Origin: Spongiibacter sp.
Lineage (GTDB): Bacteria > Pseudomonadota > Gammaproteobacteria > Pseudomonadales > Spongiibacteraceae
Direction: 5' to 3'
Assembly (NCBI RefSeq): GCF_041602295.1
Contig: NZ_JBFIGO010000003.1
Location: 6,115-70,114 of the forward strand
Length of the DNA: 64,000 bases
Numbering within the stretch: position 1 is the stretch's first letter; every line of letters starts with the position of its first letter. Made by a program: the position numbers and the translations under genes. Positions 9,368 to 21,760 of the stretch are shown one piece after another. The notes under the pieces are model-generated. The model saw only the letters and a program-made list of their open reading frames with translations, did not search any database and was not told the DNA's origin.

Positions 9368-9544
9368 ATGCGTATACAAGCTCCGCTTTTACTACTACTG
9401 TGCTTTATGGTGGTGTTCACCCCCACCCTCAACCACTGGCTATACAGTGGCGGCAGCTCTTGGTACCGCCTTCACCTTCTCTGGCTGGCGGTCATCGGCT
9501 TTGTCTTCCTGGTCAATCTCAAGCACAGCCGCCATGACATTTGA
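9368..9544 (+). CDS. cbrX: CbrX-like small membrane peptide (58 aa)
   Basis: MRIQAPLLLLLCFMVVFTP...W...GSSWYRLHLLWL; two hydrophobic segments; overlaps the cbrA start by 11 bp, as recalled for Pseudomonas cbrX. Confidence 0.7.
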   Translation: MRIQAPLLLLLCFMVVFTPTLNHWLYSGGSSWYRLHLLWLAVIGFVFLVNLKHSRHDI

Positions 9545-12509
9545 TATCAACATCCTCGTTATCGCCGCCCTGGCCTATCTCATTACGCTGTTCGCCATCG
9601 CCTATGCCAGCGAGCGCCAGCTGCTGCCGGCAGCGCTGGTCGACCACCCTCTGGTCTATGTGTTGTCTCTGGGGGTCTATGCCAGCGCCTTCGCCTACTA
9701 CGGCGTCACCGGCATGGCACAGGCCTACGGCCTCGGTTATCTCAATTATTATCTCGGCATCTCGGCGGCACTGTTCTTACTGCCGATTATCATTAGTCCG
9801 CTGCACCATATCTGCAAAACCTACCAACTCAACTCCCTGGCAGACCTGCTCAGTTTTCGCTTTCGCAGTCAGTGGGTCGGCTCACTCACCACCGTGTTTT
9901 GCAGCTTCGCCATGTGGCCGCTACTGGCAATGCAAATCCAGACCGTCTCCGACGCCACCATGCTGCTCACTCAGGCTGCCGACGACACCAGTGGCAGCGG
10001 CTTTCGGCAACTGTCAGCACTGATTTTTTGCCTGATTATCAGCCTATTCACCATTTTATTTGGCTCGCGCAGCCTTTCCTCACGAGACAGCCACCGCGGT
10101 CTCGTCGCCGCCCTGGCATTTGAGTCCCTGGTCAAGCTAGTGGCCTTCCTCTGTCTGGGCGCCGCCGCTGTCTATGGCGTCTTTGGCGGGTTCGCCGACA
10201 TGCAACACTGGCTGACCAGCCAGCCCGCCCTGTTAGAACAATTGCAGCAGTCCGACAACAGCGACAATGCACGAATGATGCTGGTACTGTTTTTCGCCGC
10301 CTCACTGTGCATGCCCCATGTTTTCCACATGCTGTTTGCCGAAAACCCCAGCGGCAAAAAACTGTATCTCGCCGGCTGGGGCTTGCCGCTGTATTTATTG
10401 TTACTGAGCCTACCGGTACTGCCGTTACTGTGGGCCAGCAGCGCACTGGGCAACGGGCAGCCAAGCGGCGATTACGCCGCGCTGCACGTGCTGTCGGCGC
10501 TGGACAGTCCACTGCTATCGCTGCTGGTGTATATCGGCGGCATTTCCGCCGCCAGCGGCGCCATCATCGTCGCCACACTGGCCATCGCATCGATGAACCT
10601 CAATCACATTGTCCTGCCCCTGCACCGCCCGCAACGCCGCCCAACAGATATCTACAGCTGGCTACTGTGGACTCGACAAGTCCTTATTTTCACCACCATC
10701 TTACTCGGCTACCTGCTCTACACCGTCCTTCCCGACCGGCAAATGCTCAGCACCTTGGCGGCAATTTCCGTAGCGGGCTGCGCCCAATTTCTACCCGGGC
10801 TGCTCGCGGTAATGTATTGGCCCAGAGCAAACCGCCAGGGTTTCATCGCCGGACTATTCGCCGGCTTCACCCTCTGGCTACTGGGTCTATTGGCACCCGC
10901 CATCGGCTTTGACACCCCGGGTTTTATCCTTACCCTGCCCGGCGTCACCGGCAACCAAACACAAAACTGGATGGCCATTGCCACACTGGCCGTGGGCATC
11001 AACACCCTGGTGATGATTCTGGCCTCACTGCTCAGCACCACGTCCAAGGAGGAACGCAGCGCCGCCGAGGCCTGCGCCATCGACGACCTCAACCGGCCGG
11101 GCCGCCAGGCACTGGCACTGAAAAGCGCCAAAGAAATGCGTGACCGCCTGACCGAATCCCTTGGCAGCGCCGTCGCCCACAAGGAGTTTGGCCGCGCTCT
11201 CGAAGAACTCCGGCTCAACGACGACGAGAGCCGTCCCTATGCTCTGCGCCGCATTCGCGACCGCATTGAAGTCAATCTCTCTTCGCTGCTCGGCCCCTCT
11301 ATCGCCCGCCGGGTGATCGACCGCAGCCTCCCCTATGCCAACAACCTAATGGGCGAGGGCGAAGACATAAACTATATCGAGGATCGACTGGAACACTACC
11401 AGGCCCACCTCACCGGCCTGGCCGCCGACCTCGACGCCCTGCGCCGCTACCACCGACAGACCCTGGAAGACCTGCCCACCGGGGTCTGCGCCCTGGCGTC
11501 AGATCACGAAATCCTGCTGTGGAACAAAAGCATGGCCAGCATTACCGGCGTGCAAAGCGGCGACATCACCGGCTCCAGCCTCAGCGGCCTGCCGCCCGCA
11601 TGGCATAAACTGCTCACCGATTTCAGCCATAGCGAAGATCAGCATTGGAATAAAACCGGCATCGAAGTCGATGGCCAGCCGCGCTGGCTCAACCTCCATA
11701 AAACCGACTCGCAGCTACCGGGCCGCGACGAGCTGATTATTGTTATCGAGGACATCACCGACACCCAGCTGCTGGAGAAAGAACTCGGCCACCAGGAACG
11801 CCTTGCCTCCATCGGCCGCCTGGCCGCCGGGGTCGCCCACGAGATCGGCAACCCCGTCACCGGCATCGCCAGCCTGGCGCAAAACCTGCGCTACGAAACC
11901 GACGACCCGCTACTGTTGGAAAGCGCCGACCAAATCGTCAAGCAAACCCAACGCATCAGCAGTATCGTGCAAAGCCTGGTCAATTTTGCCCACAATGGCC
12001 GCGAACACCCCACTCGCGCCAAGGAAGCCGTCTCCATCCGCCGCTGTGTTGACGACGCCGTGCAGTTGCTGCAGCTGGACAAGGAGGCCGAGCAAGTGCG
12101 CTTCCTTAACGACTGCCCCCCCGAGCTAGAGGTCGCTGGCGACCAACAGCGACTCGTTCAGGTCTTTATCAACCTGCTGACCAATGCCCGCGACGCCAGC
12201 CCAGCCGACTCCGCAGTGCATATCGACGCCAATACCATTGGGGAGAAAAATCAAGCGCATATCCGCATCTGTGACAGCGGCAGCGGCATCGAACCGCAGC
12301 TCATTGAACAGATATTTGAACCCTTCTTCACCACCAAGGACCCCGGTAAAGGGACCGGCCTCGGCCTGGCACTGGTATACCGCATTATCGACGACTTGGG
12401 GGGCGACATCAGCGTAGAAAGCCCCCATAACAATGGCACTCAGCCGGGCACCTGCTTCCACATTCACCTGCCGCTCGCCTGCCATCTCAGCAATGACTGC
12501 CCGCCCTAA
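9534..12509 (+). CDS. cbrA: SLC5-transporter-fused sensor histidine kinase CbrA
   Basis: About 13 TM sodium:solute symporter-like domain, linker, PAS-like region, LAAGVAHEIGNP H-box, QVFINLLTNA N-box and GTGLGL G-box. The start at 9534 (MTFDIN) was preferred over 9447. Confidence 0.9.
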   Translation: MTFDINILVIAALAYLITLFAIAYASERQLLPAALVDHPLVYVLSLGVYASAFAYYGVTGMAQAYGLGYLNYYLGISAALFLLPIIISPLHHICKTYQLNSLADLLSFRFRSQWVGSLTTVFCSFAMWPLLAMQIQTVSDATMLLTQAADDTSGSGFRQLSALIFCLIISLFTILFGSRSLSSRDSHRGLVAALAFESLVKLVAFLCLGAAAVYGVFGGFADMQHWLTSQPALLEQLQQSDNSDNARMMLVLFFAASLCMPHVFHMLFAENPSGKKLYLAGWGLPLYLLLLSLPVLPLLWASSALGNGQPSGDYAALHVLSALDSPLLSLLVYIGGISAASGAIIVATLAIASMNLNHIVLPLHRPQRRPTDIYSWLLWTRQVLIFTTILLGYLLYTVLPDRQMLSTLAAISVAGCAQFLPGLLAVMYWPRANRQGFIAGLFAGFTLWLLGLLAPAIGFDTPGFILTLPGVTGNQTQNWMAIATLAVGINTLVMILASLLSTTSKEERSAAEACAIDDLNRPGRQALALKSAKEMRDRLTESLGSAVAHKEFGRALEELRLNDDESRPYALRRIRDRIEVNLSSLLGPSIARRVIDRSLPYANNLMGEGEDINYIEDRLEHYQAHLTGLAADLDALRRYHRQTLEDLPTGVCALASDHEILLWNKSMASITGVQSGDITGSSLSGLPPAWHKLLTDFSHSEDQHWNKTGIEVDGQPRWLNLHKTDSQLPGRDELIIVIEDITDTQLLEKELGHQERLASIGRLAAGVAHEIGNPVTGIASLAQNLRYETDDPLLLESADQIVKQTQRISSIVQSLVNFAHNGREHPTRAKEAVSIRRCVDDAVQLLQLDKEAEQVRFLNDCPPELEVAGDQQRLVQVFINLLTNARDASPADSAVHIDANTIGEKNQAHIRICDSGSGIEPQLIEQIFEPFFTTKDPGKGTGLGLALVYRIIDDLGGDISVESPHNNGTQPGTCFHIHLPLACHLSNDCPP

Positions 12510-12595
12510 GGCCCCGGAGAATGTGGAATTATCGCGCTGGACGCGTTATGTTGGTGGGCTAAATATGGCAAGCCCGAATAGCGATGGAGCCCTCT

Positions 12596-14020
12596 ATGCC
12601 CCGAATCCTGATCGTTGAAGACGAAGATGTTATTCGCCTCGCGCTGCGTCGTCTGCTAGAACGCAACGACTATCAGGTAGATGAAGCCGCGTCGGTACAA
12701 GAGGCCGTCAACAACTTCGACCTCGACAGTTACCAACTGCTTATCAGCGACCTGCGCCTGCCCGGCGCCCCCGGCACCGAGCTCATCAACAAAACCGAGC
12801 GCCCCGTGCTGATTATGACCAGCTACGCCAGCCTCAAGTCCGCCGTCGACTCGATGAAAAAAGGGGCGATCGACTACATCGCCAAGCCCTTTGATCACGA
12901 CGAAATGCTCGACACGGTCGCCCGCATTATCAGCGATGACGACAGCGCCAGCGCGCCCGGCAACACCCGCCAGCGCCAACAGCAGGCGCGCGCAAACGGC
13001 ATGATTGGCAGCTGCAAGCCGATGCAGCAGCTGTACGAGCACATTCGCCGCGTCTCCCCCACCGACACCACGGTCTTGGTACACGGCGAAACCGGTACCG
13101 GCAAAGAGCTGGTCGCCCGCGCCATCCACAGCCAGAGCAAGCGCGCCAACAAAGCCATTATCTGCGTCAACTGCGCCGCCATCCCGGAAACGCTGATTGA
13201 GTCCGAGCTTTTCGGCTACGAAAAAGGCGCATTTACCGGCGCCAATACCAACCGCATCGGCCTGATCGAAGCGGCCGATGGCGGCACTTTGTTTCTCGAC
13301 GAAATCGGCGAATTGCCGCTTGAGGCCCAGGCGCGGCTGCTGCGCTTTATTCAAGAAGACGAAATTCGCCGCATCGGCGCCGTGGAATCCAGCAAGGTCG
13401 ACGTGCGACTGATCTGCGCCACCCATCGCGACCTCAAGGACATGGCCCACAACGGCCGCTTCCGGGAAGACCTCTACTACCGCATCAACGTCATGAAGCT
13501 GGAGCTGCCGCCGCTGCGCGAGCGCGGTAAAGACATACTGGAGATTGCCGAAACCCTGCTGCAGCGCCGCTGTGAAGCACTGGGTCGCGAGCGACTGAAA
13601 CTGAGCCCCAAGGCCATTCAAGCGATCACCACCTACGTCTGGCCCGGCAATATTCGCGAATTGGAAAACGCCATTGAGCGCGCGGTGATCCTCTGTGAAG
13701 GCAGCGAGATCGACAACGAACTGCTAGATATCGACCTCGAACTGGTAGACATCAGCCAGATCCGCGGCCGCAAACCCGAGCGCAGCCGCAACCCCAACAT
13801 CAGCGAACGCAAAGACGCACGCCCCAGCCGGGTGCGCAGCTCAGATCCCACTGAAGACCTGTCACTGGAAGACTACTTCCAGCGCTTTGTGCTGGAACAC
13901 CAGGACAGCATGAGTGAGACCGAACTCGCACAAAAACTCGGCGTCAGCCGAAAATGCCTGTGGGAACGCCGTCAGCGCCTGGGGATTCCACGCAAAAAAA
14001 CCGCCCGCTCCGGCGGCTAA
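12596..14020 (+). CDS. cbrB: Sigma-54-dependent response regulator CbrB
   Basis: REC domain, [23 protein letters not shown] and [10 protein letters not shown] motifs, and the CbrB-type tail [47 protein letters not shown]. Confidence 0.92.
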
Positions 14021-14024
14021 CGCC

Positions 14025-14073
14025 CGTTACCCAAGAGCCGCGCGCGTAACAACTTCCGTTTACTAAGGTAACA
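14025..14073. promoter_or_regulatory. Putative CbrB enhancer (three TGTTAC/GTAACA-type half sites)
   Basis: CGTTAC (14025)-N15-GTAACA (14046), plus GTAACA (14068). Resembles the TGTTAC-N14-GTAACA site described for Pseudomonas crcZ. Confidence 0.7.
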
Positions 14074-14146
14074 AAGACGCAAAAATCCCGTTTTCACGCC
14101 AGCAAAGGATATAAGTAAACAACTGATAAATAAGGAAAAACCAAAG

Positions 14147-14163
14147 TTGGCACAAGGAATGCT
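14147..14163 (+). promoter_or_regulatory. Sigma-54 (-24/-12) promoter
   Basis: TTGGCACAAGGAATGCT: GG (14149-50)-N10-GC (14161-62), with the TGGCAC core intact. Confidence 0.85.
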
Positions 14164-14173
14164 TTGTTATTTG

Positions 14174-14286
14174 ACAAAGAACAATAATAAACACAATAAA
14201 AATAATAAAACGCGGCAAAATAAAAATAATAGACGTAGTAAAGAGACCTGGGTGGGGAAGACATTGTTTTCCCCTTCTTCATTTTT
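14174..14286 (+). ncRNA. crcZ: CrcZ-like Hfq/Crc-sponge sRNA (short, about 110 nt)
   Basis: Lies between cbrB and pcnB, downstream of the sigma-54 promoter. Three (AAN)n tracts at 14177-90, 14195-208 and 14217-31, ending in a hairpin plus U-rich tail. Ends are inferred. Confidence 0.7.
14254..14286 (+). terminator. Terminator of the CrcZ-like sRNA
   Basis: GGGGAAGAC-ATT-GTTTTCCCC followed by TTCTTCATTTTT. Confidence 0.6.
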
Positions 14287-14382
14287 GGACCCGACAAAAT
14301 CCCCCATTCCCCCGACGGCGCGCCAAGCACTCCGCTTGTGCTAGAATGCCGCCTTTGCCATTTCAGGCTGATATCGAGATCA

Positions 14383-15765
14383 ATGAGCACCACTACTGTT
14401 TCAGGACTTTGGAAAAAACTCGCCGGCAAACTGAGTCGCTCCAATAGCAGTCCACACCGCCCGACAATCATCCCCCGCGACGACCATTGCGTATCACGCA
14501 GGCTCATCAGCGACGGCGCACTGAAGGTCATTCAGCGCCTTAACCAGGCCGGCCACGAGGCCTACCTGGTGGGCGGAGGCGTGCGCGACATACTGCTTGG
14601 CGGGGAGCCCAAGGACTTCGATGTCGCCACCGATGCGACCCCCGAACAAATTCGCGGTCTGTTTCGCAACAGCCGCATCATCGGCCGCCGCTTTCGCATA
14701 GTCCATGTGCGCTTTGGCCGAGAAGTAATTGAGGTCACCACCTTCCGTGGCAACCACGATGCCGCGCCCGTACACAGCAACCCCAAAGGCAAGCAGTCCG
14801 CACGCAATGAGTCCGGTATGCTGCTGCGCGACAATGTCTATGGAAGTATTGACGAAGACGCTGCCCGTCGCGATCTCAGCATTAACGCCCTCTACTATTC
14901 CAGTCGCGACTTCGCCATTTACGATTTCGTTGGCGGCATCGACGACCTCAACCGCCGCCTGATCCGTGTGATTGGCGACCCGGAAACCCGCTATCGCGAA
15001 GACCCCGTGCGCATGCTGCGGGTCGTGCGTTTTGCCGCCAAGCTGGACTTTGACATAGAAGCCCACACCGAAGCGCCGCTGCGCCAACTCGCGCCACTAC
15101 TGGAAGATATTGCCGCCGCGCGAATGTTCGACGAGGTGCTAAAACTGTTTATGGGCGGCCGCGCCCTGCAAACCTACGCGCTGATGCAGCGCTACGGCCT
15201 CTTTGCCCCGCTATTCCCGGCCACCCAACGCCTGCTCGACGAGGAGTGCCCAGAAACCGTCGAACTCATACACCAAGGCCTGGCCAACACCGACGCCCGC
15301 ATCGCCGAAGGCAAACCTGTTACCCCCGCCTTCCTCTACGCAGTCTTGCTCTGGCCGGTGGTTAAAAAACTGCACAAAGAACAGCTCGCCGACGGCGTGC
15401 CACCGATTCCCGCGCTACATCAGGCCGCCGAACGCTGCCTGCACAAGCAGCAGCAGCGAGTGGCTATTCCGAAACGTTTTTCGCTGCCGATGCGCGACAT
15501 CTGGGAGCTGCAACTGCGCTTCGAGCGCCAATCCGGAAAACGTGCCGAACAACTGGTAGAACACCGCTACTTCCGCGCCGGCTACGACTTCCTGCTGCTC
15601 CGCGAACAGTCCGGCGAAATTGGCGAGCAACTCAGTCAGTGGTGGCAGGCCTTCTACGAAGCCCAACCGGATACCCGCAGCAATATGCAACAGCACAGTG
15701 AATCCCAGGAGGAGCGCCCACGTCGCCCTCGACGCAGACGGCGTGGACCGCGCAACAAGGGATGA
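14383..15765 (+). CDS. pcnB: Poly(A) polymerase I
   Basis: AYLVGGGVRD, PKDFDVATDATPEQ, IIGRRFRIVHV, RRDLSINAL and EDPVRMLR motifs. Start is uncertain. Confidence 0.95.
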   Translation: MSTTTVSGLWKKLAGKLSRSNSSPHRPTIIPRDDHCVSRRLISDGALKVIQRLNQAGHEAYLVGGGVRDILLGGEPKDFDVATDATPEQIRGLFRNSRIIGRRFRIVHVRFGREVIEVTTFRGNHDAAPVHSNPKGKQSARNESGMLLRDNVYGSIDEDAARRDLSINALYYSSRDFAIYDFVGGIDDLNRRLIRVIGDPETRYREDPVRMLRVVRFAAKLDFDIEAHTEAPLRQLAPLLEDIAAARMFDEVLKLFMGGRALQTYALMQRYGLFAPLFPATQRLLDEECPETVELIHQGLANTDARIAEGKPVTPAFLYAVLLWPVVKKLHKEQLADGVPPIPALHQAAERCLHKQQQRVAIPKRFSLPMRDIWELQLRFERQSGKRAEQLVEHRYFRAGYDFLLLREQSGEIGEQLSQWWQAFYEAQPDTRSNMQQHSESQEERPRRPRRRRRGPRNKG

Positions 15766-19354: not shown

Positions 19355-19597
19355 CATCTAAATCATGGACTTGCTCACATATTCACAAGCCCGCTAATTA
19401 CCGCCCCCCACACCAAGGTTACTATACTGTAGCCAAAACACTCGACCACTCTCACGGCGGCCAGTGCTCTGGCACCGCAAATATAACGAGGATAATAAGC
19501 GGAGCTGATCCACCGCCGTCACAGCAACTGACAGCCCTCACTGTCGGCGCGCCCGGCCCGCGTATAACACTATAACAACAAGAGAAAAAGGAAGACT

Positions 19598-21760
19598 ATG
19601 CAAAAGCAATCGGCCAAATCCCAGTGGCGAGCGCGGTGGTGCATCGCCCTAACAATCCTGCTCGGCAGCACTAACCTCGCCAACGCACTAGATCTAATCG
19701 AACTACTCGGCGGCAATCAGGGCCAGGCACTGCCACTGCCCGCAGAGGTCACCTTTACCTACACCGCCGGCGACCAGCTCATCCCCGACAAACTCACCGC
19801 CGAGGGCATCGACTTGAAGCCCGCCGCCGACGAAAGTGGTATCAGTGGCTACCGCCTGTACTGGGCCGACGACGCCGGCAACAAAATCATCGACCTGCCG
19901 CTACTGGGCGGCAAGCCCTTTATCACTGAGCTCAATACCAGTGGCCGTGCGCTGAGCTACCGCTTTGCCGCAGACACCACGGTACCGCCCAGCGCCTTTT
20001 CCGTATTGGCTTGCTCGCGCACGGCCGACAGCGAATACTGCGGCAGCTCGGCAAGCGACAAGGTTTTTTACCGCTTCCGCGACAGCGGCATGGCCGCGAC
20101 CCTAACAGAACTCCCCCTGGTGACCGGTGACCTCGGCGCACTCGCCAACTGCCCCGGTGTCGAAGTCGCCGCCAGCTGTGGCAACCAGATGTGCGACGCG
20201 CTGGAAACCGCCGAAAATTGCCCGGCGGACTGCGGCAACTGGCAGCTGGCCTCCTACAACTACCAGACCCTGTGCAGCGATATTCAGTCGATCCACACGC
20301 CAAGCAGTGTCGCCGAAGTCCAGCAACTGGTCAGCGCCGCTGCCGCCGCCGGCAAGCGCGTCAAGGTCACCGGCAAGGCCCATTCGGCCACCGAGGTGAT
20401 GTGTACCGATGGCGTGCTGATCAGCACCGCGCAACTGACCATGCACAACCCCAGTCTCGGCATTCAATTGGAAACCTTCGAAGGCGTCGAGGTCGTTAAA
20501 GTCCCCGCCGGCACCCTGATGTGGGACCTGTCCGAATGGCTGCACCCACGCGGCAAGTCCATCGGCTATACCCACCTGGGCTATGCCTACCCCACCGTTG
20601 CCGGCCACATCGCCACCAGCTCCCACGGCAGCTCACCGCGGCACCGCACCGTACTCGCACACAGCGTGGTGGGCATGGAGGTCGTCACCGCCGATGGCCA
20701 GTTGCGCCAATTCTCCCGCGGCACCACCAAGAAAGACCTGTGGAAGGCGCTGACCACCAATCTCGGCTACCTCGGCGTGGTCACCAGCCTGCGCATAGAA
20801 GTGCAGCCGACCACCAATCTGCACGTAAAGGTCACCTACCACGACGACGACTACCTGTTCCAGAATGGCCCGGATTCGGCCTGGGAAAATATCAAGGACT
20901 GTGACTTCGGCCAGTACAACTGGTATCCCGGCATGTCCAAAGTCATCCGCAGCTGCGGCATGGAAACCAGCGCCCCCGCCGAGCCCGGCGCACTTAACCG
21001 CCTGCTCAACCCCTCGGTACCGGCGGAGATTTTCCCCTTTTTCAAACAGGGCATGCACGCGGCGGCCTGCAACCCGGGCGGCTATCTCGACGGCTTTATG
21101 GAGCGCTTTCGCTACCTGCAGTTTGTTAACCAGCCGCCCTTCGTTAAAGACCAAGATGGCAAAAGCGTGTTTACCGCCGACGTGGTTGGCCCCCAGCACC
21201 GGATGATCACCAGCACACTGGTCGATGGTCAGGACGGTTTCTTCCAAATGGACTGGGAGGTCGCCGTGCCCCGCGCCAATGCGGCGGCCGCCATGCAGTA
21301 CATCAACAACTTCCTGCACGGCCAGAACGCCAAGAACCTCGACTTGCGCCTGCCGCTGGTCGGCGTTTTCACCCGCTATGCGAAAAGCGAAGACCACACA
21401 CTCATGGCCTACACCGGCACCGGCGGCCCCTTTGCAGACAACAGCCACGTGGTGCATATCGAAATGCCGATCTACGTGCCCGCCGGCTTTAATCAGGCCC
21501 AGCTGGACGCCTATATGGCGCCGTTTGTCGAATATGTCAGCGTGCTGATCGAAGAGTACGGCGCCCGCGCTCACTGGGCCAAAAACCGCGAGTGGACCTT
21601 CGACCTGCAGCGCCAACTGGGCTCCTTCAACTACGGCGACCGCCTGAAAAAGTTTAACAAGGCCGTCGCCACACTGGACCCTAACGGCGTGTTCGCCAAT
21701 GAATACGCCAAGCGCATCGGCATCATCTACCCCAACTTCAACTATCCCGCTGACTGGTAG
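19598..21760 (+). CDS. Secreted FAD-linked aldonolactone oxidase-like protein (GULO/ALO family) with N-terminal accessory and Cys-rich domains
   Basis: Signal peptide (..LANA/LD), GKAHS covalent-FAD motif, HGSS, LGYLGVVTSL and C-terminal HWAK. About 215-aa N-terminal extension including CGNQMCDALETAENCPADCG. Confidence 0.8.
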   Translation: MQKQSAKSQWRARWCIALTILLGSTNLANALDLIELLGGNQGQALPLPAEVTFTYTAGDQLIPDKLTAEGIDLKPAADESGISGYRLYWADDAGNKIIDLPLLGGKPFITELNTSGRALSYRFAADTTVPPSAFSVLACSRTADSEYCGSSASDKVFYRFRDSGMAATLTELPLVTGDLGALANCPGVEVAASCGNQMCDALETAENCPADCGNWQLASYNYQTLCSDIQSIHTPSSVAEVQQLVSAAAAAGKRVKVTGKAHSATEVMCTDGVLISTAQLTMHNPSLGIQLETFEGVEVVKVPAGTLMWDLSEWLHPRGKSIGYTHLGYAYPTVAGHIATSSHGSSPRHRTVLAHSVVGMEVVTADGQLRQFSRGTTKKDLWKALTTNLGYLGVVTSLRIEVQPTTNLHVKVTYHDDDYLFQNGPDSAWENIKDCDFGQYNWYPGMSKVIRSCGMETSAPAEPGALNRLLNPSVPAEIFPFFKQGMHAAACNPGGYLDGFMERFRYLQFVNQPPFVKDQDGKSVFTADVVGPQHRMITSTLVDGQDGFFQMDWEVAVPRANAAAAMQYINNFLHGQNAKNLDLRLPLVGVFTRYAKSEDHTLMAYTGTGGPFADNSHVVHIEMPIYVPAGFNQAQLDAYMAPFVEYVSVLIEEYGARAHWAKNREWTFDLQRQLGSFNYGDRLKKFNKAVATLDPNGVFANEYAKRIGIIYPNFNYPADW

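Follow-up and report, generated by a model that had tools for sequence, protein, structure and literature searches.

Catabolite repression through the CbrAB-CrcZ-Crc/Hfq pathway has been called unique to Pseudomonas and Azotobacter, i.e. to the Pseudomonadaceae (PMC8871633), and PMC6296734 states the uniqueness of CbrAB/CrcZ in the same way. The crcZ genes of P. aeruginosa, P. putida and Azotobacter vinelandii share a common position between cbrB and pcnB. Their product, a decoy that relieves mRNAs of Hfq/Crc repression, is an RNA of about 390-400 nt with a structured central part and, in Pseudomonas, about six A-rich motifs; in P. putida, P. syringae and Azotobacter, the paralogous CrcY/CrcX are further A-rich decoys dependent on CbrB and RpoN. 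From the P. aeruginosa Hfq/Crc/amiE complex, the recognition rule of the Hfq distal face is known to be a period-3 A-R-N pattern (PMC6422490). Our literature search found no published description linking CrcZ to Cellvibrionales, Halieaceae, Marinobacter or similar groups, the term "CrcZ-like" being encountered once, for P. putida. Here, we describe a 64,000-nucleotide stretch of Spongiibacter DNA (hereafter the window) in which, judging from the sequence, the cbrB-pcnB spacer is likely to encode a CrcZ-like decoy RNA of about 110 nt that would be driven by CbrB and RpoN and would titrate Hfq, probably together with a Crc homologue. A CrcZ-type interpretation had already been put forward in the initial annotation of this DNA; it is supported overall, every part of it that could be tested by sequence having held.

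The genes of the region follow the order gluQ-cbrX-cbrA-cbrB-RNA-pcnB-folK, which is that of Pseudomonas (coordinates in Table 1). The stop of the cbrX-like ORF overlaps the probable ATG of cbrA (9534) by 11 nt, an arrangement that suggests translational coupling and that is described for P. putida (PMC6591292); the GTG start at 9447 proposed for cbrA in the list of open reading frames is probably too far upstream. Over residues 30-1009, CbrA shares 48-49% identity with its Pseudomonas counterpart; it has about 13-14 hydrophobic segments, and its N-terminal domain gives no match to the Pfam SSF model. The features that define the CbrA/CbrB pair were all found, namely an SLC5-like multi-transmembrane domain joined to PAS-HisKA-HATPase, an overlapping cbrX and an NtrC-family partner, and among named CbrB proteins that of Pseudohaliea rubra comes nearest (69%). 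The RNA does lie at the cbrB-pcnB position originally assigned to it, flanked by a CbrB-like NtrC-family activator and by pcnB, with 363 nt from the cbrB stop to the pcnB ATG. In front of this ATG, the conserved TGTGCTAGAAT makes it unlikely that the GTG-initiated ORF from 14338 marks the real start of pcnB, and it also argues against pcnB depending on the sigma-54 promoter.

Table 1. Features of the cbrX-pcnB region in the window. Identity, mean pairwise identity in the family alignment.
Feature	Position	Strand	Identity	Basis or remark
cbrX-like small membrane ORF	9368..9544	+		58 aa from ATG, hydrophobic; stop TGA 9542-9544
cbrA, sensor kinase	9534..12509	+		~13-TM transporter-like N-terminal domain, PAS, HisKA, HATPase; Pfam, identity
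cbrB, NtrC-family sigma-54 activator	12584..14020	+		Receiver and Sigma54_activat domains; 63-65% to Pseudomonas CbrB
CbrB-type upstream activating sequence (enhancer)	14026..14073	+	0.69	GTTAC-N15-GTAACA and third GTAACA; motif, family alignment
Enhancer-to-promoter spacer			0.49	
IHF-like site TATCAGTTGTTTA	14116..14128	-		Fits WATCAR-N4-TTR; between enhancer and promoter; read from sequence
Sigma-54 promoter (-24/-12) TGGCACAAGGAATGCT	14148..14163	+	0.77	TGGCAC-N5-ATGCT; GG-N10-GC spacing
Predicted mini-CrcZ RNA	14174..14286	+		+1 inferred from promoter; length ~111-113 nt
A-rich body			0.73	
(ARN)5 module 1	14177..14191	+		AAG AAC AAU AAU AAA
(ARN)5 module 2	14195..14209	+		AAU AAA AAU AAU AAA
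(ARN)5 module 3	14219..14233	+		AAU AAA AAU AAU AGA
3' element AGAGACCUGGGUGGGGAAGACAUUGUUUUCCCCUUCUUCAUUU	14242..14284	+	0.93	Terminator hairpin and U-rich tail; nearly invariant, family alignment
Downstream spacer			0.31	
Extended -10 TGTGCTAGAAT	14337..14347	+	0.80	Likely pcnB's own promoter; ~36 nt before ATG 14383; family alignment
pcnB, poly(A) polymerase I	14383..15765	+		TIGR01942, 538 bits; ATG 14383 conserved in alignment

Just after cbrB, the CbrB-type half sites that had been reported are indeed present: GTTAC-N15-GTAACA occupies positions 14026-14051 and a third GTAACA follows 16 nt beyond this palindrome (14068-14073). The palindrome pattern has a single match in the window and was found in none of 100 shuffles; its hexamers are invariant in the alignment of 30 species, the half-site spacer being 15 nt at the window locus and 14-15 nt in relatives. 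In two Pseudomonas loci, the corresponding palindrome-bearing stretch after cbrB is matched exactly by the Rfam "P36 sRNA" RF01679 (L011, 4471-4531; L013, 4480-4540), a family that may describe the crcZ enhancer or the 3' region of cbrB and not an independent sRNA. The promoter TGGCACAAGGAATGCT is the sole sigma-54 match in the window, the motif alone not being significant (0.24 matches expected; a match in 21 of 100 shuffles). It has the GG-N10-GC spacing, and its -12 element, ATGCT, is one base off TTGCW; TGGCAC and TGC are invariant across the 30 species. In the window, TGGCAC lies 122 nt from the palindrome, and in Pseudomonas the CbrB palindrome likewise precedes the sigma-54 promoter of crcZ by about 122 nt. 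This distance is 121-124 nt in the window, in a Cellvibrionales metagenome-assembled genome (MAG; locus L017), in Pseudohaliea, in Gilvimarinus, in two Cellvibrionaceae and in five Pseudomonadaceae loci, the latter being crcZ loci recognised by Rfam (four Pseudomonas-type and one Serpens, 123-124 nt), and it reaches 131-132 nt in Marinobacter and Hahellaceae. At the Pseudomonas locus L011, the Rfam CrcZ match begins 27 nt after the T of TGGCAC. Between enhancer and promoter, TATCAGTTGTTTA is presumably an IHF-like site, as judged from the consensus given in Table 1; the TAA...YTGA core of this site is partly kept in the family alignment.

Read from its predicted +1, the RNA consists of ACA, module 1, CAC, module 2, ACGCGGCAA, module 3, CGU AGU AAA GAG ACC, the hairpin and UUCUUCAUUUUU. 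The initial annotation had listed three (AAN)4-5 tracts; three tracts are present, but they are better described as (ARN)5. Taking the three modules in the 30 species together, the first position of the triplets is A in 98% of the cells, the second is a purine in 94% and the third is free (entropies of 0.10, 0.25 and 1.01 bits, respectively), and all three modules are retained despite relative phase shifts between species. Such a pattern, in which A and R are fixed and N is variable, fits a binding site for the Hfq distal face; aligning low-complexity A-rich sequence may flatter conservation, but the period-3 pattern is independent of the fine alignment. Overlapping AANAANAA motifs number 8 in 100 nt at the RNA locus, for 1944 genome-wide (both strands, 6.5 Mb). 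In the whole genome, the only other locus with at least five clustered AANAANAA motifs is an (AAAAAC)n microsatellite, located outside the window at a contig end (G000:C112:7880-7910), which was rejected as an sRNA of the mini-CrcZ type. The expectation of a nearly unstructured RNA agrees with the ViennaRNA prediction, which gives no stable structure for the first ~70 nt and a terminal hairpin only.

This hairpin is terminator-like (14254-14274), is followed by TTCTTCATTTTT and gives the RNA a predicted length of about 111-113 nt, in agreement with the terminator announced about 110 nt downstream of the promoter. The whole 43-nt 3' element has a single occurrence in the genome and a mean pairwise identity of 0.93 among the 30 species, a constraint that seems to exceed the apparent needs of a terminator. 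When 33 sequences of several families were aligned, pairing within the hairpin amounted to 99%, three pairs were compensatory, and none of 500 shuffles reached the observed score; this covariation is modest support because the alignment had been fitted to the model. Upstream of the stem, GACCUGGRUGGGG is kept even between families. Metagenomes scanned for the 3' element yielded 12 contigs, all of them long DNA and some from TARA ocean samples, with no short transcript-like contig among them.

When compared with the Rfam CrcZ model (RF01675), the window RNA obtains 20.7 bits (E = 0.004) for a gathering score of 95. Standard Rfam-based annotation therefore misses it, as the initial annotation had thought probable for covariance models. 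The alignment takes only model positions 1-48 and 383-398, the central 334 of the 398 positions being deleted; the 3' part of module 2 (from 14193) falls inside the stretch aligned to the first 48 positions, and module 3 is aligned with cacAAUAAaAACAAgACGuAa of Rfam CrcZ. Pseudomonas and Serpens RNAs (234-362 bits) are the sole ones above the gathering score, while a relaxed threshold gives 53 bits for Marinobacter, 33 for Hahellaceae and 20-22 for the short forms. Like CrcZ, the window RNA begins with ACAA..., continues with AANAANAA motifs, including the model-aligned AAUAAAAAUAA..GACGUA, and ends in a G-rich terminator hairpin, and the partners cbrA, cbrB, crc and hfq occur in both systems. 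It also shares with RF01675 the location between cbrB and pcnB on the same strand, the sigma-54 promoter with a CbrB palindrome of the TGTTAC-N14-GTAACA type and the several A-rich CA motifs. It differs from CrcZ in its length (~110 nt instead of ~390-400 nt), in the number of its A-rich elements (three modules instead of about six motifs, and so less titration capacity), in the complete lack of the structured central part, in its 3' element (GACCUGGRUGGGGAA...), which is not seen in Pseudomonas, and in its host, which belongs to a different family of marine gammaproteobacteria. Since the model score falls short and the ~400 nt length with its structured central domain is missing, we file this RNA as a miniature variant and not as a member of RF01675. 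By position and promoter, its sequence makes it very probably a CrcZ orthologue; what is specific to it is the combination of a single three-module unit, maintained across an entire family, with a quantitative A-R-N signature.

To follow the RNA in relatives, we used a covariance model, R1, built from nine short units (partly from Halieaceae loci), the E-values of which are rough. R1 has one match in the genome of the window, at 75 bits, and no second copy, in contrast with the CrcY/CrcX paralogues of P. putida, P. syringae and Azotobacter. Within the same family (40 species, 4 genera), it matches 39 of the 40 genomes, once each apart from one draft genome with two matches. Among 30 family loci that were fetched, 28 carry the RNA between pcnB and a cbrB 71-96% identical to that of the window, in spacers of 360-484 nt that could not accommodate a 400-nt CrcZ. 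In an even sample of the order, 37 of 151 genomes, from at least 14 families, have an R1 match, which is located between cbrB and pcnB in 6 of the 7 loci fetched from other families. Two genomes of one such family (G046 and G102, family f3) show 4-5 dispersed R1 matches on different contigs, at least one of which (L119) is not beside cbrB; this suggests that the mini unit has been multiplied there.

A second view was obtained from relatives of CbrB, which belong to Pseudohaliea rubra, Halieaceae and Cellvibrionales MAGs, Gilvimarinus, Cellvibrionaceae, Marinobacterium, Marinobacter, Hahellaceae and Pseudomonas. In 14 of about 19 non-pseudomonad loci, cbrB is followed by an A-rich RNA that is preceded by GTTAC/GTAACA boxes and a sigma-54 promoter; no such A-rich RNA was found after cbrB when loci L021-L024, L027 and L030 were read. 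Two forms can be distinguished. A long RNA of ~200-400 nt occurs in Gilvimarinus, Cellvibrionaceae, Marinobacterium (two tandem copies), Marinobacter and Hahellaceae (L010, L015, L019, L026, L029, L031), with the promoter layout of the window and always below the Rfam CrcZ gathering score, and a short RNA of ~90-110 nt occurs in Halieaceae and in the Cellvibrionales MAG L017. In Halieaceae, a second mini unit often stands in tandem, ~100-200 nt after the first (L007, 4707-4798; L008, 4777-4873; L009, 4793-4884), reminiscent of the multiple Crc sRNAs. These second units have no recognisable sigma-54 promoter and may owe their transcription to read-through or to a different promoter. The Halieaceae form has two units with two modules each, against a single three-module unit in the window.

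The genome (3.24 Mb, 58% G+C, 98% complete) contains rpoN, hfq and a crc homologue alongside cbrX, cbrA and cbrB, so that the search for crc and hfq advised in the initial annotation was positive for both, crc being a homologue between pyrE and rph. Of the first 71 residues of Hfq, 67 (~94%), including SIYLVNGIKLQGQ, are shared with P. aeruginosa Hfq, whose structure 1u1s is the best solved match. Two paralogues with the ExoIII fold are encoded; one (Xth) has intact catalytic residues, whereas in the Crc homologue substitutions affect E34, the D-x-N motif and the D of the D-H motif. The best solved relative of the latter is P. aeruginosa Crc (4jg3; 206 bits, 41% identity), a small margin over true ExoIII (178 bits). 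In the Hfq/Crc/RNA assembly of P. aeruginosa, K139, R140 and R141 of Crc contact the RNA, R140 being pivotal, and E142, E193, R229/R230 and R233 are interface residues (PMC6422490). K139, R140 and R141 are kept in the homologue, with E142 changed to D; the other substitutions are R138 to N, E193 to L, R196 to N, R229 to K, R230 to T and R233 to E. As E193, R196, R230 and R233, which belong to Crc-Crc interfaces, are changed, the assemblies may differ from those of Pseudomonas.

Possible targets were surveyed on a crude gene set in which starts were picked by Shine-Dalgarno score. The AANAANAA motifs are most frequent between -40 and -11 relative to the predicted starts (137 in sense orientation vs 27 in the antisense control), and runs of (ARN)5 or longer are found in this interval for 16 genes, 10 of them annotated. 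The strongest A-rich leaders precede fatty-acid, SDR and symporter genes; the annotated set includes a FadD-like ligase, an acyl-CoA dehydrogenase, two short-chain dehydrogenases, a wax-ester synthase and an amidohydrolase, and further a DoxX protein, a WrbA-like flavoprotein and an SSF symporter, to which we add the secreted oxidase-like gene at window position 19598. The FadD-like gene lies at C87:2035-3744, that of the acyl-CoA dehydrogenase at C48:4446-5648 and that of the SSF symporter at C97:1370-2797. A-rich leaders are common in bacteria generally, and since this enrichment is not specific to Crc/Hfq, it is compatible with a regulon and is not evidence for one. The A-rich motif of the SSF symporter is kept in only about one third of the family orthologues. 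In front of 19598, AUAACAACAAGAGAAAAAGGAAG (window 19560-19600; G000:C3:25670-25712) forms an ARN run of 21 nt that reaches up to the ribosome-binding site; only two runs of this length class, the longest in the genome, were seen, and the sequence makes this gene a candidate Hfq/Crc target.

From the observed sequence features, conservation, synteny, A-R-N constraint and full set of protein partners, we infer how the RNA would be transcribed in dependence on CbrB and RpoN, how it would bind Hfq and Crc and which mRNAs it would act on. Under a poor carbon supply, CbrA would phosphorylate CbrB, which would bind the GTTAC/GTAACA enhancer and, helped by an IHF-type bending, activate the RpoN-RNA polymerase at TGGCAC-N5-ATGCT. 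The transcript would end in the conserved hairpin and U-rich tail, and its ~70-nt single-stranded part would offer three (ARN)5 tracts, each matching the A-R-N pockets of the distal face in an Hfq hexamer. Titration of Hfq, probably with the Crc homologue, would then relieve the translational repression of mRNAs with A-rich motifs beside their ribosome-binding sites. In evolutionary terms, the RNA is probably the positional and evolutionary counterpart of Pseudomonas CrcZ, reduced to a functional minimum.

Other readings of the spacer have to be weighed against this one. The RNA is on the same strand as pcnB and ~100 nt upstream of it in nearly all loci, and the terminator tails of relatives are only moderately U-rich, which makes some read-through plausible; the segment could accordingly be a regulated leader or attenuator of pcnB, in which the hairpin would terminate conditionally and a long pcnB mRNA would be made in place of a free sRNA. 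We regard this as unlikely, because TGTGCTAGAAT is conserved between terminator and pcnB in a spacer that is otherwise 31% identical, because attenuation gives no evident reason for the A-R-N constraint and because the equivalent arrangement in Pseudomonas yields a free CrcZ RNA (PMC5113210, PMC4063720). An Hfq-dependent base-pairing sRNA, with the 3' element or the A-rich segment serving as seed for mRNAs and not as a protein sponge, is in our opinion improbable as well: the 43-nt 3' element is unique in the genome and, at 93% identity in the family, more conserved than a terminator seems to require, but it is mostly locked in the hairpin, and in the 5' part every third base is free, which fits recognition by a protein better.

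The short length, with 334 of the 398 model positions missing, might instead point to a decaying and functionless remnant of a full-length crcZ. The pattern of conservation contradicts such a decay, which must be considered very unlikely: 39 of 40 species keep it as a single copy, as do several other families, and the enhancer, the promoter, the three modules and the terminator are intact, whereas the flanking spacers have diverged to 31-49% identity. Finally, an ORF of 65 codons is predicted at 14147-14344, where in-phase ARN repeats without stop codons could specify a small Lys/Asn-rich peptide. This coding reading was rejected, its chance being negligible in our judgement, since the frame is interrupted in more than half of the 30 homologues (about 19 have no frame open beyond ~41 codons, and 18 none reaching 38), the indels between modules are not multiples of three, and there is neither a Shine-Dalgarno sequence nor a conserved start. 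The CrcZ-like decoy RNA is the reading that we prefer.

Within this decoy interpretation, we tentatively suggest a further role for the 3' element (GACCUGGGUGGGGAAGAC...CCCCUUCUUCAUUU). It could possibly be a second specific protein-binding module (e.g. for the proximal face or rim of Hfq, or for Crc) that offsets the small number of A-rich sites, the RNA then being a minimal bipartite Hfq/Crc trap, and the short unit might be the ancestor from which the 400-nt Pseudomonas CrcZ arose by duplication of modules.

Rfam-based annotation systematically misses such short CrcZ-like genes. If functional, this 110-nt RNA, with its hairpin and only three (ARN)5 tracts, would offer a small natural system in which to determine the number of Hfq sites that a sponge needs. 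That cbrX, cbrA, cbrB, the A-rich RNA, crc and hfq are conserved in marine heterotrophs of another family indicates that this carbon-choice circuit is probably not confined to pseudomonads, and, if it is functional, a large group of carbon degraders in the ocean would have Pseudomonas-type reverse catabolite repression as a general trait.
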